From Amoebidium appalachense (Eukaryota; Protista; Ichthyosporea), in NCBI GenBank assembly GCA_963693365.1, contig CAVNZM010000018.1, positions 367,861 to 431,860 on the forward strand: a DNA stretch of 64,000 bases, given 5' to 3'. Position numbers and translations under genes: made by a program. Below, piece after piece: positions 2,961 to 16,120 of the stretch. Each line of letters opens with the position of its first letter. Position 1 is the stretch's first letter. The notes under the pieces are model-generated. The model was not told the origin of the DNA and did no database searches. It was given only the letters and a program-made list of their open reading frames with translations.

Positions 2961-3095
2961 GGGGCCTGGGGGGCTGGGTGGCTGAGGGTGGCTGGGGGTG
3001 GCTGTGGGGGGCTCCTGTGTCCCCCCAACGCACGTGCCTCGCCCGCCTCCTGGTCCTTCCGTGCCCCACTTGCCACTCCCAGCCCCCCAAGCCCC
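2961..3095. terminator. GC-rich stem-loop between convergent genes
   Basis: GGGGCCTGGGGGGCTGGG-TGGC (2961) pairs with GCCACTCCCAGCCCCCCAAGCCCC (3072-3095). Related sequence at 3975-4065. Confidence 0.4.
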
Positions 3096-3232
3096 GGGCA
3101 GTGTCTATGCAAGTTGTTTGAGACATATTGCAAGACCTGCTTGCTCACTGGCGCCAGGTTTATTGGGTGATGGTCCAATGCACCTTTGCCCCAATGGTGG
3201 GGTGGTGGGGTGGTGGGGGCCTGGGGGCGCTC

Positions 3233-3919
3233 CTAATCCTGAAAGATCCTTGAAGCCCACAGGTAGTAGCAGTCTGACTTGCCACTGGCACCTGTTGGTG
3301 GGTGCAGTGGCCATTTGCAAACTCTAGGTTCGAGCGTGCATTTTGTGTGTCCAAGAATTTTTGTAATGGCCATCCCGAATGCCCGAGTGCTTGGCATAGG
3401 AGTTTGGGCAGCGTTGACGTTGTGCCATTCCTGAAAAAGCTGATACAGCCCGGTTGATGTCACGGCACAACCGTTGTGGATGAATGTGAAATTTTCACAC
3501 CCGTTTCTGTGTGACAACAGATCCCTTAGGAATTGCATCTCATTGTTAGCTGATGTGCAGACTGCCACTGGCTTTTCGGCCTCCACATCCAGCGCTGGAA
3601 GTGGGCTCCAAATGAGCTGCAAGGTGTCTGGTTCGATCGTGGCTCTGATGCCCAGGAGCGTCATCGTTTCGATCGCCACTTTCAAGCAATCTAGGGACGC
3701 AATATCGAACAGATGTACCCGAGGTCGATGGTTCGGACAGTAGGCTTGATAGCACAGGACCTGCCCAACGGCGGATTTCCATTTAGAAGCGCGCTTGACT
3801 TCGATGACTTCCGTGGCCGTCAGCAGGTCGATCCGTCCTGCGGGCGTGCGTACCTCAATGGTTCCACCTTCGAGCTTGGCCAGCCTATCCCTGACATATG
3901 ACTCGTCGTAGGTAGCCAT
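3233..3919 (-). CDS. PD-(D/E)XK nuclease-like domain fused to a helicase-type C-terminal (probable winged-helix) domain, paralog 1
   Basis: EVRTPAGRIDLLTATEVIEVK...WKSAVGQVLCY. C-terminus (QFLRDL...GLYQLFQEW...FGMAITKILG) aligns with the C-terminus of the helicase at 5206-6708. Confidence 0.8.
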   Translation of the reverse strand: MATYDESYVRDRLAKLEGGTIEVRTPAGRIDLLTATEVIEVKRASKWKSAVGQVLCYQAYCPNHRPRVHLFDIASLDCLKVAIETMTLLGIRATIEPDTLQLIWSPLPALDVEAEKPVAVCTSANNEMQFLRDLLSHRNGCENFTFIHNGCAVTSTGLYQLFQEWHNVNAAQTPMPSTRAFGMAITKILGHTKCTLEPRVCKWPLHPPTGASGKSDCYYLWASRIFQD

Positions 3920-4087
3920 CACTTACAACACAAGAAAATAAAAATCACCCGCAGTCGATTGTTGGTTGCCAGTGGGTGGCTGGGGGTGGCTGGGAGGGGC
4001 CTGTGTGCACCGGTGCCCCGTCAGCCACGCGTGCCTCCTGTGCCTGGCCGGCCACCCCAGCCCCACGCGCGGTGTTAACAGGATCAC

Positions 4088-4792
4088 CTAGGCGTGATTA
4101 ATCTTCTCGTAATCGAACACAAAAGCATATGATGTTCCGGCCGGGGCAAGTGCAGTCATCCCAGGGGGGACAGTCAGGTGGTTGTTTCGCACCCCCCTGT
4201 TGGCTCCGAAAACCTTGGTGAGCATGGAGCCCACGCTCTTCACATTGATATATGGCAAACTCTTAGACTTGCCATTGAGAGCAAGCCACTCTTTGAACAG
4301 ATGTAGCATAGCCGTGGCTGTGATACGGGCTCCATCGTGTAGTTGCTGTATAGACATACCCTCTTTACCATTCGCCATGTCTTTGAGAAACTCGAAGAAA
4401 AGTCTATACTCTGACTCCGGGGAATCCGGCTGTTGTTCAGAATCAGTTTGGCTGTTTGAGCGTGCTGGGCGGGGCATCCACATCAACTGCACCGTATCGA
4501 GTTCCACTGTCAAGGTGACGCCTAATCGAGCCATTGTTTCCGCCGCAACCCTGTATACATCAGCTGATGCATACCCAAATAAATGAACCCGGGGTTGGTG
4601 GTCAGGGAAATACCCATGGTAGGCAAGGACCTGTCCCATGGCCCCCTTCCACTCATGCGCCCGCTTTACCTCAATGACCTCCGTGTCAGTCAGGAGGTCG
4701 ATACGTCCTGCTGGTGTATGTACTTCCTTCTTTCCACCCTCCAGGGTCATAAGTCGGTCTCTGACCCATGATTCGTCACCAACACCCATCAT
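4088..4792 (-). CDS. PD-(D/E)XK nuclease-like domain + helicase-type C-terminal domain, paralog 2
   Basis: EVHTPAGRIDLLTDTEVIEVKRAHEWKGAMGQVLAY. C-terminus EFLKDM...DGARITATAMLHLFKEW...VGSMLTKVFG. Confidence 0.8.
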   Translation of the reverse strand: MMGVGDESWVRDRLMTLEGGKKEVHTPAGRIDLLTDTEVIEVKRAHEWKGAMGQVLAYHGYFPDHQPRVHLFGYASADVYRVAAETMARLGVTLTVELDTVQLMWMPRPARSNSQTDSEQQPDSPESEYRLFFEFLKDMANGKEGMSIQQLHDGARITATAMLHLFKEWLALNGKSKSLPYINVKSVGSMLTKVFGANRGVRNNHLTVPPGMTALAPAGTSYAFVFDYEKINHA

Positions 4793-4960
4793 ACATGGCA
4801 CAGAAAAAAATAGCCTTGATGATACCACCAGTGAGGGTGTTTTTCACCAATGCAAGACCTGCTTGCTGGAACCGTGATATTTATTGGGTGCCGATGTTCC
4901 ATTTTACAGAGTGATACCAGAACTCCCCACGCTGATAATATGCTAACCCCACCCTCGGAG

Positions 4961-5210
4961 GTGTAACGTTGTAGGGGGTGTAACCAAAGGATTTCAACTC
5001 CACCCCCAAAGTGTGGTCCCCCATAGCAACAGCCAATCAGATCGCCCCATCCCACCCCATTCCGCCTGATTTATTTCAGTAGTTACTCTAGTTACAAATA
5101 GGAAGTAGTAGTTACAGAGAATACAAGGAGGTCAAACGGCACAAACGGTGCGTTTTGATTGGTTCCCGGATCTAGTTACAATTTTGTTACGCGTTACACG
5201 TTTCGTTACA
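4961..5210. promoter_or_regulatory. GTTAC/GTAAC iteron-like cluster (candidate replication origin)
   Basis: GTAAC at 4963 and 4980; GTTAC at 5082, 5091, 5111, 5175, 5186, 5193, 5205. Immediately downstream of, and overlapping, the helicase stop codon. Confidence 0.5.
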
Positions 5211-6708
5211 GACCCACCACCCTACGAGCAAGTGTGTAGCAACCGACAATGCCCGATCCTGCGTTCAAATCTTGGCCTGGGGCGCCGTAAGCTATGGATG
5301 CAGCACGCGTACTCGTGAGCTTTCCGAGGATGGCCGTAACCGCCATCCCAAAGTCGCGCTGGGTGGGCCTCTTGGACTTGTCGGGGGTATTCTGTTCCCA
5401 CCAGGTCTGGTAGAGATAGAAAAGGCCACTTGGGGTGATTCTGGCACCGTCCTCGAACACAGGCGCACCCTCAAATACGTTCTCCCGTTTCATCAGGTCA
5501 CGCAGGAACTGCAGCTCCATCGGTCCGCTCAGGTCCTGTAGCTGCCGCTTCAAAGTGGTCATGGGAGGCGGGACCCTGTTGGGGTCGGACACGGGGATCC
5601 TCATGAACCACTGGTAGAGATGCTCAAGCGCAGGGGATCCAGCTGCATACTGCTGGGACAGGGCCCTGAAATACCTCTCATCGCCAACACGGCTGTCGGA
5701 CACCTCCATGCACGCATAGCGCCTGTCCGTGCGACTGACCGGGATGGGATGCTGTTCGTTGGACATCAGGATCCAGCGCTCGCATGACCTGACCTTGACT
5801 GCATCAATTCCCTTGGCCTCGTAGGTCATGGTGTCGTCGGTAATAAGCGTCTTCAGGTGGTTGGGTGTACGATGACTCTTCCCGTATGTAACCTCATTGC
5901 ACACAACCAACAGCTTGAACGTGATACCGCCATTGAAGCGGCTTGCCAGCCTGTCCTCGGTCTCAACCACACCAACAAGATCGTCACCCAGGACATTCTG
6001 AATGATCCGGACAAACATGTTCTTGCCAGTTCCTTCGATGCTCCTCATCAGCCAGGCAGACTCGGGCTTGCGTGCGGGGTACTGGAACAGGTGCCCCAGC
6101 CACTCCAGCACGTAACGGTACAGAGACTCGTCTCCTGCACAGATGACCTCCCTTGCATGGCAAATAAAGCCCGCAAGAAGGCTCTCGTCTATGACAAAAG
6201 ATGGGTCATACAGGAACTGGAATCCCTGGAAGCTGTTGAATGTGCGGCTGTGGGTAGACGTGTAGCGGGGGTTGCGGACACGGGTCTTGGGGTCCGGGTC
6301 ACTGGGGTCGAAGACGATGCCACCGTGGTACACGACCATGTGGCTACTGTCCAGAAGCCAGGAGCCCTTGTATGTTTCCACCTTTTTGCCTGTCGGGTTG
6401 TATTTGAACTTGTACTTGGACAGCATGTCGGCCACCTTCTCCTTGGACTTGATCTCATGGACGAATCTCCCATCCTTGAAACGCTTGAAGAGGTACACAC
6501 CATCCGGGCGGGAATAAGCCACCAGTGTGCGACAGAACGCGTGGATCTGCTCCTCTGTCCATTGGTATTGCTCAACGATGTCCGCGTCCAACCAGTTGTT
6601 GCGCGTGCCTGTTGTCCGCTCAAACTCTTCGTAGGTCGCCAGTTTGCGCTGCTCGTTCTCTGACATGTCCGTAGCTATCTTCATGTAGAGGTCTTCCATG
6701 ATGTCCAT
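5206..6708 (-). CDS. Superfamily-3 (D5/DUF5906-like) helicase without an obvious primase domain
   Basis: FNSFQGF pre-helicase motif, WLGHLFQYP, Walker A (EGTGKN), Walker B (LVVCNE), motif C (WILMSN), arginine finger (DRRY), C-terminal wHTH-like region. Confidence 0.88.
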   Translation of the reverse strand: MDIMEDLYMKIATDMSENEQRKLATYEEFERTTGTRNNWLDADIVEQYQWTEEQIHAFCRTLVAYSRPDGVYLFKRFKDGRFVHEIKSKEKVADMLSKYKFKYNPTGKKVETYKGSWLLDSSHMVVYHGGIVFDPSDPDPKTRVRNPRYTSTHSRTFNSFQGFQFLYDPSFVIDESLLAGFICHAREVICAGDESLYRYVLEWLGHLFQYPARKPESAWLMRSIEGTGKNMFVRIIQNVLGDDLVGVVETEDRLASRFNGGITFKLLVVCNEVTYGKSHRTPNHLKTLITDDTMTYEAKGIDAVKVRSCERWILMSNEQHPIPVSRTDRRYACMEVSDSRVGDERYFRALSQQYAAGSPALEHLYQWFMRIPVSDPNRVPPPMTTLKRQLQDLSGPMELQFLRDLMKRENVFEGAPVFEDGARITPSGLFYLYQTWWEQNTPDKSKRPTQRDFGMAVTAILGKLTSTRAASIAYGAPGQDLNAGSGIVGCYTLARRVVGL

Positions 6709-7257: not shown

Positions 7258-7575
7258 CTACCACCTGTACACCAGCACGCCAGCGAGCAGCACGAGCAGC
7301 ACCATGCATGCAAGCGCTATGCCCCTCCACATCGAAGCCCTCTTGAGCTGTGCATCATGGTCGTCCAATGAAGTGCCCATGTAGAGCATGAAGCGCGTGC
7401 TGTTGTCGATGGTCAGGTGGTACTCGTGCGGGTCGGCGGCAATGTCATCCCTGCGCAACCACGAGTTACTCGGGTTGTCAAATCTCAGGTTTGCAATGTT
7501 CGGAGAAGTCATACCTTCCGAAGAGATACTTTGGAGCGCCCCCTCCCCAGCAACTCGGGGAGCACACACAGACAT
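7258..7575 (-). CDS. Small tail-anchored membrane protein, hypothetical
   Basis: 105-aa ORF ending in a hydrophobic helix IALACMVLLVLLAGVLVY; a partial copy of this tail lies at 7831-7880. Confidence 0.45.
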   Translation of the reverse strand: MSVCAPRVAGEGALQSISSEGMTSPNIANLRFDNPSNSWLRRDDIAADPHEYHLTIDNSTRFMLYMGTSLDDHDAQLKRASMWRGIALACMVLLVLLAGVLVYRW

Positions 7576-7646: not shown

Positions 7647-7780
7647 CTACAATGATCTTTGGTAACCTTGTTTTTCTTGGTCATATATATGGTCAATTTG
7701 ATAGCTGTTCGATCTTGTGTCCAGAGCGGTGGTTGTAAAAGGCAACAACAACAACCCACTGCAAGTGTCACAAAGGGCAC
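7647..7780 (+). mobile_element. Orphan left end of the IS607-Fanzor element
   Basis: 134-bp near-identical copy of 12905-13038 (2 visible substitutions), preceded by the same CTG. Confidence 0.8.
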
Positions 7781-7979
7781 GCTGTCGGTGCATTAACACA
7801 AACAACAAGACCCCACCCCCCCCCCCTGAGCGCCAGCACGCGGCAAGCAGCACGAGCAGCACCATGCATGCAAGCGCTACGGTCCACAACACAGGTGTGG
7901 AAGAGGAAGTGGCAATTTTTATTTACTGGTCGTGTCCAGCACGGCTGCGCTTCTCAGGGCTGACAGCTATCGCGTTTTG

Positions 7980-9842: not shown

Positions 9843-9994
9843 TTTCGTGACAAGCGATAGAATTCATTCGGGGTTGTTGTAGAATCGTATATTTATTATT
9901 GATGTAATCTCGGGTACTTGTTTCGTGTGCAAGCGATAGAATTCATTCGGGGTTGTTGTAGAATCGTATATTTGTCATTGATGTAACCTCGGGT
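9843..9994. repeat. ~78-bp tandem duplication in a convergent intergenic region
   Basis: CAAGCGATAGAATTCATTCGGGGTTGTTGTAGAATCGTATATTT...CGGGT occurs twice. Confidence 0.85.
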
Positions 9995-10580: not shown

Positions 10581-10630
10581 CCGTGTTGGACGCGGAGAGC
10601 TGCCAGTCTGCATCTGCACCAGAACTGAAC

Positions 10631-11149
10631 ATGGCTTTTGAGCAGGACCTGAAGCTGTTCGTGAATAGACTTTCGCTGTTTGTCTCGAGCATGACGTTCG
10701 ACTCACACGGCGCCGGGAGGGTGGCGAGCCGGCCGCTACAGCTCCACGCGCGACTCGGCAAGGGCGACACGATGCTGTCGGACACGATGCTGCCGCTGCA
10801 ATCGGTCGAATCATCGAATCGAGACGGACTCAACCACCTGGTGTTTTCGACGTGTCCGCTGGAGGGGGCCGGGGATGCGGTGACCATCGACCTAGATTGG
10901 GGCAAGTCGTTCCGGCTGACCTGGGAGCGCTGGGACACCACGCTGTCGCTGCTGCCACCGAGGGACCCAACTGAGAACGAAGGGATGGGGGAGGGACGTG
11001 CCGTCCCCCTGAAGGCTTCGAGCCAGCGAACAACCCTTCTGCGAATCGACTTTCTGAAGGACTTTGTTTGGCACGACACGGGCTGCGACATCCTGTCGCT
11101 GCAGCTATACGAACCAGCAAAGAAAAATAGGCGGCTGCGTAGAGAATGA
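10631..11149 (+). CDS. Hypothetical protein (172 aa)
   Basis: ATG downstream of a TATA box; basic C-terminus (KKNRRLRRE); no family recognised. Confidence 0.55.
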   Translation: MAFEQDLKLFVNRLSLFVSSMTFDSHGAGRVASRPLQLHARLGKGDTMLSDTMLPLQSVESSNRDGLNHLVFSTCPLEGAGDAVTIDLDWGKSFRLTWERWDTTLSLLPPRDPTENEGMGEGRAVPLKASSQRTTLLRIDFLKDFVWHDTGCDILSLQLYEPAKKNRRLRRE

Positions 11150-13103
11150 TAAATATATCACGCAGTGCGTGTGTGTGTGCGACTGCGCCCCGGATGGTGC
11201 AGCACGCGTATATAAGCAGGGCCACCCCCAAGGTGTCGTCCGAGCGCATGCCTGTGTATGCGCGCACAAATTTGTTTGCATTGCGGAGAAATCATACCCC
11301 CCCTCCCCGTAAACCAGTCGATTGTTGCTGCCAGCATTCTCGGCACGACTGAGGGTGCGCAGGTATATAAGGAGCACACACAGCCAACTGGGGTCAGTCT
11401 GACACAGCATGGCTACCGGACAGAGCAACTCAAAGGTGGACATGTCGCTTCTGTGGAAGGAGTTCCCCCATTCAAGGATGCCCAATATAGGATCCATGGA
11501 AAGGGCAAGGATGCACAGGGTAGCGTCCTGGATACCGCCACCATTGTGCTTGGCTCGTCAAATGCTGCAAGGTCTGCATGGTTTGATATGCAGGCAAGCA
11601 AGGAGTCGACCGTTAAGGACCTTGTTGCTCGCAGCAACAAGGTCCGCATAAACGGAAAGGGAATGGTTACACCTGTCGCTCCTTTCAAGGTCCTCATCGA
11701 GATCATCTTCATGCTCCCTGGCCAGCGCGCGCACGAGTTCCGCAAGACCTGTGCCAAGTACGTTGCACGACTTTTGTCACACAAGGATTGGGAGGGTATA
11801 AAAGAACCAGACACACAACCCCAAACCTCACTTTCACAAACCATGCCAACGGAACACGACGAAAGCTTAGCTATGCTAACCGGAAACGAGGTCGCCGCAA
11901 AAAAAGGCGACACCATCTGCATTGGTGACTATGTAGTGCGAGTTGCTCAATCCGAAGGTGTTAAATACGCCAGTCTTGTTGATTATGCAATGCTAGTGCG
12001 CAATTTAGACAGACATGCGGCCGCTGAGTATGTCAGACGACATTATGAGAATGAAGAGGAAATCAAAGGCCTCAACATGAGGCCTTTGAGGTTCGGCGAT
12101 TCAAAGCGACCCTCGATTGGTGTTCCTGCTTCATCGTTGGTGAAACTGACCTTCAAGATGGCATCCGGCTCGCGCTATGGATCTGCCCTCGTTGACAAGT
12201 GGGCCCGAGACATAGCGCGCCTCGAGGGTGGGGATGAAACTCTGCTGGAAGACATCGAGCGCAACCGTGCCGCAGCAGAAGCCAACCCCAGTGGGCCAAA
12301 TGCTTTTATGCGTGACAGTGTGCAAGCAGAAATGGATGCCGACAGGACACCCGAGAGGGAGCCCAAGAGACTGAAGCTCGGAGACATCACCCAGTTCATG
12401 ACCAACCAGGCCGAGATGGAAACTGCACTGAGTCTGTACAAGGAGGCGCGCATCGCCGAATCTGCACAGTACACGGAGATCATGATGATGCGCGAGGAAG
12501 GCGCTCTGTGTGACAAGCGCGCAGGTGTGATTCGCGAGGAGCGCCTGAAACTCGAGGCGCAGTGCCGGCTTTTGGAGCTCCAGGCAACAGACAGCATCAA
12601 GCAGGACCACATCCCACCCGAATACGAGGATGCCAGCGAGGAGCTGCGCCGGGTCACCAACCACGTGTGCACCAAGCAGCAGTCCGGCATCTACGTGTTC
12701 GTGTCCGAGTATGGCGACCCGCCCTGCCTGAAAATCGGACTCAGTCTGAAGGACGTGAAGGGCCGCATGAAGCAGGCCGGTACGTGGCATGTGGGACCCA
12801 ACAAGCGCCTGCTCTTTGCGCTGCCCGTGCCGTCCGAGCAGCTGGCGCTTGCGGAGAAGTGCCTGCACACAGCACTCAAACACAAGAACGTCGAGCGCGA
12901 GCTGCTACAATGATCTTTGGCAACCTTGTTTTTCTTTGTCATATATATGGTCAATTTGATAGCTGTTCGATCTTGTGTCCAGAGCGGTGGTTGTAAAAGG
13001 CAACAACAACAACCCACTGCAAGTGTCACAAAGGGCACACTTATTCTTGTTATCTGAAACTGCCAATGTTGGGCAACTTCAAATATTTTCTATACCTTAT
13101 AGT

Positions 13104-13787
13104 ATGCCCCACAATGGCACCAAGTACATATCTGGACTTCAATCCAGAAAGAAGTACGGGGTATCGGGATCCTCACTTCGGAGATGGGCAAACCAGGGAC
13201 GCATCCGAATTGTTAGAACACCAGGCAATGTCCGCCTGTACAACACCTCGGACATTGACACGTTGCTCGGGTGTGAAACGGACACACGAACAGACAGAGT
13301 TGATGTTGCCTACGCACGGGTCTCATCCCACAAACAGCGCACGGACCTCGACCGGCAAGTTCAGTATCTGCGTGAACGGTGTCCCAATCACGAAATTGTC
13401 ACTGATGTCGGGAGTGGCGTCAACTTTAAGCGCAGAGGACTGCTGTCCATTTTGGAACGGGCAAGCAAGGGAAATGTCAGAGAGATTGTGGTTGCCCACA
13501 AGGACAGGCTGTGTCGACTCGCCGGTGACCTGCTGTGGTGGATTCTGGAAGCATATGGGGTCAAAATCGTGGTTCTCAATCACGCAGACGAGTCCAATAC
13601 AGATGAACTCGCGGAAGACCTTATCGCCGTCACCACCCACTTTGTCTGTAAGCATCATGGACGTCGCAAGTACGGAAACAAGTGCAATGGAAAAGAGGGA
13701 AGCGGAAAGGAACTTCAAAAGACTAAAGCGCATGGCATCGAAACACATGAAGAAAGAGCAGAAACTCTATTTGAAGGATCGTCTTAA
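13104..13787 (+). CDS. tnpA: IS607-type serine recombinase (MerR-like HTH + resolvase catalytic domain)
   Basis: GVSGSSLRRWANQGRI...RTPGNVRLY HTH; YARVSSHKQRTDLDRQ catalytic Ser motif; DVGSGVNFKRRGL; VAHKDRLCR; ELAEDL. Confidence 0.92.
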   Translation: MPHNGTKYISGLQSRKKYGVSGSSLRRWANQGRIRIVRTPGNVRLYNTSDIDTLLGCETDTRTDRVDVAYARVSSHKQRTDLDRQVQYLRERCPNHEIVTDVGSGVNFKRRGLLSILERASKGNVREIVVAHKDRLCRLAGDLLWWILEAYGVKIVVLNHADESNTDELAEDLIAVTTHFVCKHHGRRKYGNKCNGKEGSGKELQKTKAHGIETHEERAETLFEGSS

Positions 13788-15066
13788 TGGACGGCCTCCG
13801 GAGCTTGACGATTATGTGGCCTGTGGAGTGAACGTTCTGGCTTTGCGGGAAAGGACCGAGCTTTTGGTCCGCACAAAACTCATCCGTGTGATCCCAACAA
13901 AGGAACAAAAGCGATGGTTGGTCGAATGCTTCGGAGTGGCAAGGAAGATCTTCAATCAATGTGTAGGTCTTCACGACCTGAAGGGAAGCATGGACAAAAC
14001 CGAATATCGCAGGCAATTTGTCAACAACAAAAGCATTCCCGACTGCGAAGAATACAAGAAGCGTGTGCCAAACCTTCTTCGTAACGGCGCGGTGGATGAT
14101 TTTTTCGGGGCCGTGGGTTCGCAGAAGGCAAAGGCACGTTATGCTAAGAAGAGGGGTTTAAAGGCAACCAGTGTCTTTGTCCGGTATAGATCCAAAAAGG
14201 ACGGATATCAATCAATTCTAATACCCCGCGCACTCACCAAGTTCAATGGTACACACGCCATTTTTGCCCCAACGATGTGCCCCGAAGGTGGGCATTTGAA
14301 ACTTGCGGAGCAAGTACAACCGGATGAGATGGAAACAGATGGGCGGCTCTTGATGACCAGGGACGGGAATTTCTACCTATCAATTACATATCGGGTACCG
14401 GGGGGTGATAGCCAAACCCCTCTAACCGAACAACACGATAGGCGGATATGTGCACTTGATCCTGGTATTAGAACCTTCCAGACTGTCTATGACCCCTGTA
14501 ACAAGGAGGTCACACACCTTTTTCCCGGGGACATCAAACGCATCAGTCGGCTGCTCAACCGTGAGGACCAGCTGAAAAGTCGTTTGACACAGACATCTGT
14601 TAAACACAAAAGTCGGTATCGGATGAGAAAGGCCCTGTTCCGAATGCGCCAAAGGGTTCAGAACCTTATTGCCGACGCACACTGGAAGGCCGCTGGATGG
14701 CTCACCTCCAACTTCGACGTGGTAGTTATTCCTTGGTTTGACTCTGGGAGTATGTCACGTAGGGGCAAGAGGAAACTTCGCAGCAAGAGCGTCCGATGCA
14801 TGATGGGTTGGCAGCATGCCAAGTTTCGACAACGGCTGGTGTGTAAAGCAGAGCAACGGGGAACTGCAGTGGTGTTTGTCAATGAATCCTACACCAGCAA
14901 AACGTGTGGGAGGTGTGGACAGATCAACCAGGGTCTTGGAGGTTCTAAGGTGTTCAAGTGTAAACATTGTGGGTTGGTCATTGACAGAGATGTCAATGGG
15001 GCTCGCAACATATTTATTCGCTCATGTACGCGGCCCGTGGGCAGCCACGGGCCTCTGCCGGTATAG
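13114..15066 (+). CDS. tnpB: Fanzor2 / IS607-type TnpB RNA-guided nuclease, apparently intact
   Basis: IRVIPTKEQKRWLVECFGVARKIFN; RuvC-I ALDPGIRTF; rearranged Glu in VNESYTSKTCGRCG; Zn finger CKHC; RuvC-III DRDVNGARNI. Start codon uncertain. Confidence 0.9.
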   Translation: MAPSTYLDFNPERSTGYRDPHFGDGQTRDASELLEHQAMSACTTPRTLTRCSGVKRTHEQTELMLPTHGSHPTNSARTSTGKFSICVNGVPITKLSLMSGVASTLSAEDCCPFWNGQAREMSERLWLPTRTGCVDSPVTCCGGFWKHMGSKSWFSITQTSPIQMNSRKTLSPSPPTLSVSIMDVASTETSAMEKREAERNFKRLKRMASKHMKKEQKLYLKDRLNGRPPELDDYVACGVNVLALRERTELLVRTKLIRVIPTKEQKRWLVECFGVARKIFNQCVGLHDLKGSMDKTEYRRQFVNNKSIPDCEEYKKRVPNLLRNGAVDDFFGAVGSQKAKARYAKKRGLKATSVFVRYRSKKDGYQSILIPRALTKFNGTHAIFAPTMCPEGGHLKLAEQVQPDEMETDGRLLMTRDGNFYLSITYRVPGGDSQTPLTEQHDRRICALDPGIRTFQTVYDPCNKEVTHLFPGDIKRISRLLNREDQLKSRLTQTSVKHKSRYRMRKALFRMRQRVQNLIADAHWKAAGWLTSNFDVVVIPWFDSGSMSRRGKRKLRSKSVRCMMGWQHAKFRQRLVCKAEQRGTAVVFVNESYTSKTCGRCGQINQGLGGSKVFKCKHCGLVIDRDVNGARNIFIRSCTRPVGSHGPLPV

Positions 15067-15190
15067 GCCAAGGTTCTTGTAATCTTGCATGACCATGCCA
15101 CTAGCCTAGCTCCTTTCATGACCCGTGGTCATGTTGGCAAGTTTAGGAAAGGATGGTAGGTTCAACTGTATCTGTTCCGTGTGGACTTTG
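15030..15190 (+). ncRNA. Predicted omegaRNA (scaffold to 15174, flank-derived guide from 15175)
   Basis: Hairpin 15032-15040/15045-15053; stem 15084-15097/15124-15141; closing stem GGTATAG/CTGTATC (15060-66/15166-72). Position at the element right end matches TnpB/Fanzor systems. Confidence 0.7.
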
Positions 15191-15332
15191 TGACTTTTGC
15201 TGCGGCCATGCTGGAGATGGCGAGGGAGCACATGGAAGACGACTTGACAAGGGACCTCGTCATGAGCGTGTTCAAGAAGGGCAGTCAGGAGCAAGCGCAG
15301 TAGCCCCAAGACATTTCAATGGATAAGCACCA

Positions 15333-16120
15333 TAATACAAGTAATTCGGTCAACGTTTTATTCCATTATTCGGAGTGCTCGGTAGCAATTAATACAAGTC
15401 CGAATTCGGTCAACGTTTTATTCCATTATTCGGAGTGCTCGGGAGCAATTAATACAAGTCCGAATTCGGTCAACGTTTTATTCCATTATTCGGAGTGCTC
15501 GGGAGCAATTAATACAAGTCCGAATTCGGTCAACGTTTTATTCCATTATTCGGAGTGCTCGGGAGCAATTAATACAAGTCCGAATTCGGTCAGAGTTGCA
15601 TCTCATTTTTCGGCGTGCTCGGTAGCAATTAATACAAGTCCGAATTTGGTCAAAGTTGCATCTCATTTTTCGGCGTGCTCGGTAGCAATTAATACAAGTC
15701 CGAATTCGGTCAACGTTTTATTCCATTATTCGGCGTGCTCGGTAGCAATTAATACAAGTCCGAATTCGGTCAAAGTTGCATCTCATTTTTCGGCGTGCTC
15801 GGTCGCAATTAATACAAGTCCGAATTCGGTCAACGTTTTATTCCATTATTCGGCGTGCTCGGTAGCAATTAATACAAGTCCGAATTCGGTCAGAGTTGCA
15901 TCTCATTTTTCGGCGTGCTCGGTAGCAATTAATACAAGTCCGAATTTGGTCAAAGTTGCATCTCATTTTTCGGCGTGCTCGGTAGCAATTAATACAAGTC
16001 CGAATTCGGTCAACGTTTTATTCCATTATTCGGAGTGCCACAACACATATCCGAATTCGGTCAACGTTTTATTCCATTATTCGGAGTGCCACAACACAAG
16101 TCCGATTTTGATCAACGTTA
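15333..16120. repeat. 60-bp tandem array with palindromic CCGAATTCGG core and two alternating variants
   Basis: AATACAAGTCCGAATT(C/T)GGT at 15391+60n through 15991, plus degenerate end units. Variant A AACGTTTTATTCCATTA; variant B A(G/A)AGTTGCATCTCATTT. Confidence 0.95.

Follow-up and report, generated by a model that had tools for sequence, protein, structure and literature searches.

A short locus in the ichthyosporean Amoebidium appalachense looks like a replication cassette that carries, beside its own origin, two predicted nucleases for cutting the origins of rival elements. It occupies positions 3,233 to 6,708 of a 64,000-nucleotide stretch (assembly GCA_963693365.1, contig CAVNZM010000018.1, positions 367,861 to 431,860, forward strand), which we call the window. 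This is the best explanation we can offer for the locus, and we put it a little short of an even chance. Its parts deserve separate judgements. By analogy with known systems, the repeat cluster in the locus is very likely a replication origin. Judging from sequence, the two nuclease fusions probably bind repeats of the origin type. That they are aimed chiefly at a rival, and not at the element itself, we propose tentatively. The locus was picked out by an earlier reading of the letters of this DNA (the original prediction), which described three co-oriented genes with a common C-terminal domain flanking a cluster of iterons. The three genes do share such a domain, of about 105 residues; their open reading frames (ORFs) are intact on the minus strand, and the C-terminal and catalytic motifs quoted at the time are present. 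The cluster is also real. The flanking is not symmetric, the order being helicase, repeats, N2, N1:

5206..6708, minus strand: helicase of superfamily 3 (SF3), NrS-1/DUF5906 type, 500 residues, an open ORF without a primase domain.
5209..5520, minus strand: C-terminal winged helix of the helicase, the predicted origin-binding domain (ESM Atlas 0.95 to Pox_D5 clusters; homologous to the N1 tail).
4962..5210, no strand assigned: iteron-like cluster, by analogy a likely replication origin; seven (T)GTAAC copies on the minus strand (5082-5209) and two inverted (4963, 4980).
4088..4792, minus strand: N2, 234 residues from the first ATG; NucS-like PD-(D/E)XK domain at about 4502-4780 and a divergent winged helix at about 4091-4393.
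3233..3919, minus strand: N1, 228 residues from the first ATG; NucS-like PD-(D/E)XK domain at about 3623-3907, a low-confidence linker and a winged helix at about 3236-3556.

GTAAC occurs nine times in 4963-5209, compared with 74 times in the whole 64 kb, and no 5-mer reached nine copies in 2000 dinucleotide shuffles of 4830-5210. Seven copies run in the direction of the helicase and two are inverted; seven of the nine read TGTAAC, and the first includes the TAA stop codon of the helicase. The lowest G+C content in the cluster, 32%, is at 5075-5124, within the direct set, and the gap to the inverted pair has 50-60% G+C. This layout has a precedent in Staphylococcus aureus pathogenicity islands (SaPIs). 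As described in excerpts of PMC9371898, the SaPI origin consists of 6-12 penta- or hexanucleotide iterons in both orientations directly downstream of rep, and these are bound by the C-terminal winged helix of Rep. According to the same excerpts, SaPI Rep and PriRep5, and Cch and Cch2 of the staphylococcal cassette chromosome SCCmec, combine an SF3-type initiator-helicase, a C-terminal winged helix and downstream iterons, as is seen here, and some SaPI-type Reps lack a fused primase, like the window helicase. The nine copies at our locus, seven in one direction and two in the other, fit the SaPI pattern. The locus differs from SaPIs in its eukaryotic host, in its off-centre A+T patch, in the nuclease-tail fusions behind the origin and in that no primase gene was seen within 1-17 kb.

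Arrays also recur at distant relatives of the helicase. We surveyed 400 bases at the helicase stop codon. Fifteen loci were fetched and 12 kept; L007 (on the contig of L008), L010 (negative, and a near-copy of L009) and L025 (truncated) were dropped, and three of the 12, L011, L023 and L024, are kin. Seven of the 12 have an array that stands out clearly (0 of 500 shuffles), in each case with its own motif, and five of these arrays are two-directional. Because arrays recur at distant helicase loci and the layout is SaPI-like, we consider the analogy with an origin strong. The origin-like nature of the repeats, as originally proposed, is thus upheld by a cluster beyond chance, by its layout and by the survey.

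Some of the distant loci are of interest in themselves. At L001:7053-7450, eight or nine two-directional CCCTACAT repeats stand behind a fused primase-helicase in an A+T-rich viral contig, a clean candidate origin. L002, L003, L004 and L008 have two-directional arrays directly past the helicase stop codon, with the motifs GGTGTAGA, CTCGACAC, CCCTGCAC and CTGTACCA, respectively. Their helicases are of the DUF5906 type from prokaryotic viruses and make a ready set for studies of a tail-repeat code.

The helicase matches Pfam DUF5906 (E 3.8e-19) and PDB entry 6k9e (E 1.5e-15); the Walker A of 6k9e agrees with the one given for NrS-1 in excerpts of PMC7102993. Walker A (GTGK), NE at the Walker B position, N317 of motif C and the DRR finger are all present and are invariant in alignments, so that with these matches and a complete set of AAA+ motifs its assignment to SF3 stands. 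Protein-family scans gave no match to a primase family. The protein is 500 residues long, compared with 550-870 in fused primase relatives, and its three close relatives, P0003, P0004 and P0049 (33-45% identity, 501-507 residues), are also without a primase domain. The ATPase core with its motifs and the Pox_D5-like tail are common to the window helicase and the NrS-1/DUF5906/D5-P4 primase-helicases, while the prim-pol domain of the NrS-1 and D5-P4 proteins is absent from the window helicase and its three relatives. No close relative with DNA context was found in IMG/VR, JGI or GTDB, and a phage search returned no matches. A putative recognition octamer of the NrS-1 primase occurs once in the cluster, which is the chance frequency (two in 64 kb), and was dropped as a candidate; the excerpts of PMC7102993 do not contain it.

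The common tail is supported as a winged helix of the D5/P4 type. ESM Atlas features place the N1 and helicase tails at 0.95 to Pox_D5 clusters, where the family occurs in 17-64% of cluster members. Among the three tails, the structural model is of N1 only. The AlphaFold2 model has a mean pLDDT (predicted local distance difference test) of 90.6 and was built from a 97-row alignment in which two rows, both helicase tails, are misaligned; folded from its single sequence, N1 gives a pLDDT of 37. In the model the tail consists of three helices and a wing, and N1 residues 118-226 resemble winged-helix proteins modestly in VIA-align (Z 5.8-5.9, root-mean-square deviation (rmsd) 3.2-3.5), among them the oriT-binding accessory protein of pCW3, RFX5 and a JetABC chain. 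PDB sequence searches with profiles gave nothing, and the tail profile matched none of five virus records. In pairwise comparison N1 is 35% identical to the helicase C-terminus over 96 residues (E 1e-13), N2 is 35% identical to it over 48 residues (E 7e-5), and N1 and N2 are 46% identical over 197 residues. The winged-helix identity proposed for the tail thus agrees with the Atlas and with the N1 model, and Pfam lends it weak support.

Neither N1 nor N2 receives a family name from Pfam, PHROGs, NCBIfam or PADLOC. The best structural match of the N-terminal domain of N1 (residues 3-97) is NucS, 2vld (VIA-align Z 10.2, rmsd 2.5, 90 aligned); AF1548 follows with Z 9.3, and other restriction-fold nucleases match too. 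E4, D29, E38, K40, Q51 and Y55 are near-invariant across 97 rows, and N2 retains the E, D, ExK and QxxxY residues. QxxxY we take to be the NucS/RecB-family motif. The PD-(D/E)XK identity that had been suggested is therefore borne out by the NucS match together with the conserved D...ExK and QxxxY. At the first, second and third codon positions N1 and N2 are identical at 82, 77 and 36 of 102, which indicates purifying selection between them. The domain that NucS/EndoMS has at its own N-terminus is absent from N1 and N2.

The nuclease family is large, with 1533 matching representatives. Of 80 proteins scanned from the best 150 matches, 13 had Pfam matches: KilA-N in five, helix-turn-helix (HTH) types in five, and Rha, Bro-N and DUF5906 in one each. 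Because of its fusions to KilA-N, HTH, Rha and Bro-N, we regard the nuclease domain as a mobile module whose usual partner is a DNA-binding domain. Eight matches in BFVD at E<=0.001 have 27-46% identity, with rmsd 1.3-2.4 in seven and 6.4 in one; the closest viral structures come from giant viruses, and five of the eight are named KilA-N or N-domain. The domain is found in eight plasmid records, seven of them cyanobacterial. N1 and N2 have a domain of about 95 residues in common with the KilA-N-, Bro-N- and HTH-fused PD-(D/E)XK proteins of giant viruses and cyanobacteria; they differ in that the partner is a helicase-type winged helix.

This partner is not confined to the window. Among the 150 best nuclease matches the tail is present in nine, namely eight fusions and the helicase P0049. 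Six fusions have the order of N1 and N2 (P0046, P0047, P0048, P0050, P0051 and P0067, which is partial) and two the reversed order (P0001 and P0129). Most tail-bearing proteins had served as seeds for the profile, though not P0129. The count is a minimum: a search for longer proteins with the tail gave two, both already known, among 7993 crowded candidates. A profile search for the nuclease-winged helix fusion, which had been advised, yields eight further proteins in both domain orders. P0195, a cluster-mate of the fusions, has its annotation in an assembly of Daphnia sinensis, on a scaffold of 183 kb. We found no description of a nuclease fused to such a winged helix in the open-access literature.

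Are these fusions linked to helicases, as was expected? The fusion P0046 and the helicase P0003 each lie on a Logan contig of 3198 bases, and P0047 and P0049 each on one of 7624 bases. Under a simple null, two such matches of equal size involving two of three close helicases have a chance of about 3.5e-6. This gives the expectation indirect support, and linkage in these two relatives is probable, as judged from equal contig sizes alone. Farther away the pattern stops: the nuclease gene is absent from all distant helicase loci examined, and none of eight viral nuclease loci has the tail or a nearby helicase. Fusion-helicase linkage is limited to the clade of the window.

The original prediction also had the fusions reading the helicase's own GTTAC repeats, and here it finds no support in the sequences. 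Between N1 and N2, identity is 67% for the nuclease domains and 21% for the winged helices. The N1 tail is 32% identical to that of the neighbouring helicase and the N2 tail 18%; in the two inferred fusion-helicase pairs the values are 27% and 34%. The N1 tail is 51% identical to that of a foreign helicase, P0049, which may reflect the short branch of P0049. Between the window helicase and P0003 the cores are 61% identical and the tails 26%; with P0049 the values are 38-39% and 38%. Helicase tails interleave with nuclease tails in a tree that has many long branches and no well-supported one. They group together in 0% of 200 bootstrap trees, and the approximately unbiased (AU) test of that group gives p 0.03, the group having been picked after the first tree was seen. 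This divergence, the interleaving and the disagreement between core and tail argue, weakly, against simple copying of the specificity of the local helicase, and suggest repeated exchange of specificity modules.

A bacterial virus provides the model for what such fusions might do. The passages on Odn (Gp88 of vibriophage ICP1) in PMC8263062 describe a nuclease that has acquired an origin-binding domain, 42% identical to the RepA_N domain of its target; this nuclease cuts satellite iterons and requires them for cutting. They derive its nuclease from putative homing endonucleases, propose Odn as a driver of origin/initiator module swapping and call it the first such case; it is also the only origin-aimed nuclease that we found in print. 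The original suggestion that the idea was undescribed therefore finds no support. The concept is known from Odn; what sets our locus apart is its parts, its setting in a eukaryote and its place next to a cognate origin. Odn and N1/N2 follow the same logic, a nuclease domain of a mobile family joined to an origin-binding domain derived from an initiator. Odn, as those passages describe it, is T5orf172/GIY-YIG plus RepA_N, encoded by a phage and directed against a satellite with iterons of about 30 bp. N1 and N2, in contrast, are predicted nucleases with a NucS-like PD-(D/E)XK domain and a D5-type winged helix, in two copies, in a eukaryote, and their neighbour in cis is a helicase that has a homologous tail and repeats of its own, 5-6 bp long. 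Neither T5orf172 nor RepA_N matches N1 or N2, and the folds differ. They are not homologues of Odn and, by analogy, may work like it.

The following scheme can be suggested. With its winged-helix tail the helicase likely binds the nine GTAAC repeats that follow its stop codon. By the example of SaPI Rep and its origin, it would load on the repeats and melt the nearby A+T-richer patch, and priming would come from another gene or from the host. The captured tails would aim N1 and N2 at the origins of related, competing elements, for cutting. If Odn and the tail divergence are a guide, the fusions would recognise iteron arrays other than the adjoining one, and helicases could escape by swapping the tail together with its repeats. 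In a wider form, a family of DNA viruses of eukaryotes, or of elements derived from them, with primase-less SF3 initiators would be engaged in an arms race over origins, with nuclease arsenals aimed at rivals' iterons and with swapping of tails and repeats; this we regard as conceivable and rather doubtful.

Several observations weigh against this scheme, in addition to the limits of the tail comparisons given above. The A+T patch is modest and lies off-centre between the opposed repeats. An array is absent from three of the 12 distant loci and borderline in two. One of 40 control helicases is also on a contig as long as that of a fusion. Pfam Pox_D5 matches two of 13 tails (best E 0.069), and in PDB Foldseek found nothing at E<=0.001. 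The recognition-helix region of N1 resembles that of the neighbouring helicase as much as any other. We found no biochemistry for this nuclease family in the literature searched. Finally, the DNA-binding domains found in most of the family are unrelated to this tail, and general shuffling may have produced the fusion as one outcome among others.

Smaller repeats near the nuclease genes bear on the alternatives:

3974..3992, minus strand: CAGCCACCC array downstream of N2, a 10-bp repeat in two copies, with a G-quadruplex-type motif on the plus strand.
2976..3004, minus strand: CAGCCACCC array downstream of N1, a 10-bp repeat in three copies.
4851..4890, minus strand: CACCCAATAAA...AGCAAGCAGGTCTTGCA element, with a second copy at 3129-3169.

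Within the window the CAGCCACCC motif is confined to these two arrays. The two copies of the CACCCAATAAA...AGCAAGCAGGTCTTGCA element bracket the N2-N1 pair; the element is possibly a poly(A) or 3'-end signal. G-quadruplex-type motifs occur directly behind both nuclease genes (3199-3227, 2961-3011 and 3974-3999).

We favour the cutting of rival origins over three other explanations. N1, N2 or both might process their own origin, nicking or cutting the GTAAC or CAGCCACCC repeats to start rolling or recombination-dependent replication, to resolve concatemers or to excise the element. The fusion genes adjoin the origin here, and probably helicases in two relatives, the N1 tail is homologous to that of the helicase along the predicted recognition helix, and the same array stands behind each nuclease gene. 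We nevertheless think this unlikely: the tails are too different from those of their helicases in cis, both in the window and in the inferred pairs, and one origin has no need of two different tails. The nuclease is moreover absent from distant helicase loci and therefore is not a core part of this type of replicon. It is no more probable, in our opinion, that the fusions are selfish endonucleases of the homing type, cassettes that make a cut near the origin of sister copies without them and enter those copies through repair, with the captured tail simply targeting a conserved essential site. The tandem duplication with repeated 3' elements would suit such a life, as would the two domain orders, the origin of the Odn nuclease itself (PMC8263062, in the passages cited) and the gain or loss of whole cassettes in other copies of the surrounding island (contig joints 1092-2869, 6713-7234 and 12901-15172). 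None of the joints listed cleanly skips N1 or N2, however, and no empty allele was seen. Homing-type spread is compatible with the cutting of rival origins, and the two do not exclude each other.

Ordinary domain shuffling would make the tail one more general DNA anchor in place of KilA-N, HTH or Bro-N, and the proteins regulators or non-specific nucleases, at most competitors of the helicase. The size of the family, its varied partners, the giant-virus KilA-N proteins among the best structural matches and the eight viral loci with neither tail nor helicase are all as shuffling would have it. It leaves unexplained the position beside an origin and a helicase here, and probably beside helicases in two relatives, the at least two independent fusions, in both orders, with one subfamily of tails, and the retention of the catalytic residues. 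We hold it to be quite improbable.

The locus has some value whichever reading is right. Origins of D5/NrS-1-type helicases are poorly defined, and origin recognition by the NrS-1 C-terminal domain is, according to PMC9371898, not yet addressed; here is a compact candidate of 250 bp with nine repeats and three homologous predicted binding domains. Should the fusions cut rival origins, eukaryotic elements would have evolved origin-directed nucleases anew and from other components, and these two-domain proteins of about 230 residues would be small natural cases of nuclease retargeting by domain swap. If there is an arms race, they would parallel Odn in eukaryotes with an independent construction, and the locus would provide a defined origin of the D5 type, along with a natural set of tail-repeat pairs that could be programmed.

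That this DNA is eukaryotic can be read from the part of the window beyond 15.3 kb, where there are 68 CA/TG microsatellites together with an ORF for a reverse transcriptase and a fragment of RhoGAP. The first 15.3 kb, the island, has no such microsatellites and consists of densely packed intronless ORFs with MYND fingers, C2H2 fingers, an aminotransferase-like ORF, a weak T5orf172 match and an IS607-type resolvase with TnpB, a content that resembles that of giant viruses. Contigs from four public runs contain the island in many diverged variants, with the joints given above that skip whole cassettes, and for these reasons we regard it as a repeated, mosaic, virus-derived element. The original prediction had overlooked this multi-copy, virus-like setting in a eukaryote, and likewise the lack of a primase domain in the helicase. 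Contig depth over the island was not taken as copy number. The locus thus probably serves as the replication cassette of a DNA element of viral descent that is present in multiple copies in a eukaryote. Hallmarks of Nucleocytoviricota endogenous elements or Polinton-like viruses (capsid, packaging ATPase, DNA polymerase, integrase) were found in none of 19 ORFs scanned, in an island that reaches the left edge of the window. Giant endogenous viral elements of Euglena have 25-35% G+C (10.1101/2025.04.23.650285), which the island does not match, and in the excerpted description of Amoebidium elements in PMC11244446 helicase and nuclease terms do not occur; therefore neither classifies the island.

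Other genes of the island may be noted. An IS607-type element lies at 12908-15172, with a serine resolvase at 12975-13787 and a TnpB/Fanzor2-type ORF that ends at 15066; its empty site is seen in contigs, where 12901 is joined to 15172. A near-copy of its left end (7648-7800; compare 12908-13040), possibly a non-autonomous derivative, sits between short repeated copies of an ORF end at 7283-7331 and 7843-7891. The ORF at 58-837 encodes a Cys-rich repeat and a PD-(D/E)XK-like endonuclease, with a relative in a metagenome-assembled genome of a giant virus (L020). The ORF at 1112-2911 is aminotransferase class III-like (E 5.5e-9), and its cassette is absent from other copies (joint 1092-2869). 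The long ORF at 11258-12913 has the weak T5orf172 match at its C-terminus (E 0.049) and is a second nuclease-type gene of the island. The ORF at 10583-11149 (188 residues) matches no known family and lies where contig coverage of the island is deepest. A tandem array of 60-bp units is present at 15319-16100, near the right side of the island, and a two-copy repeat with a 79-bp period at 9851-9994.

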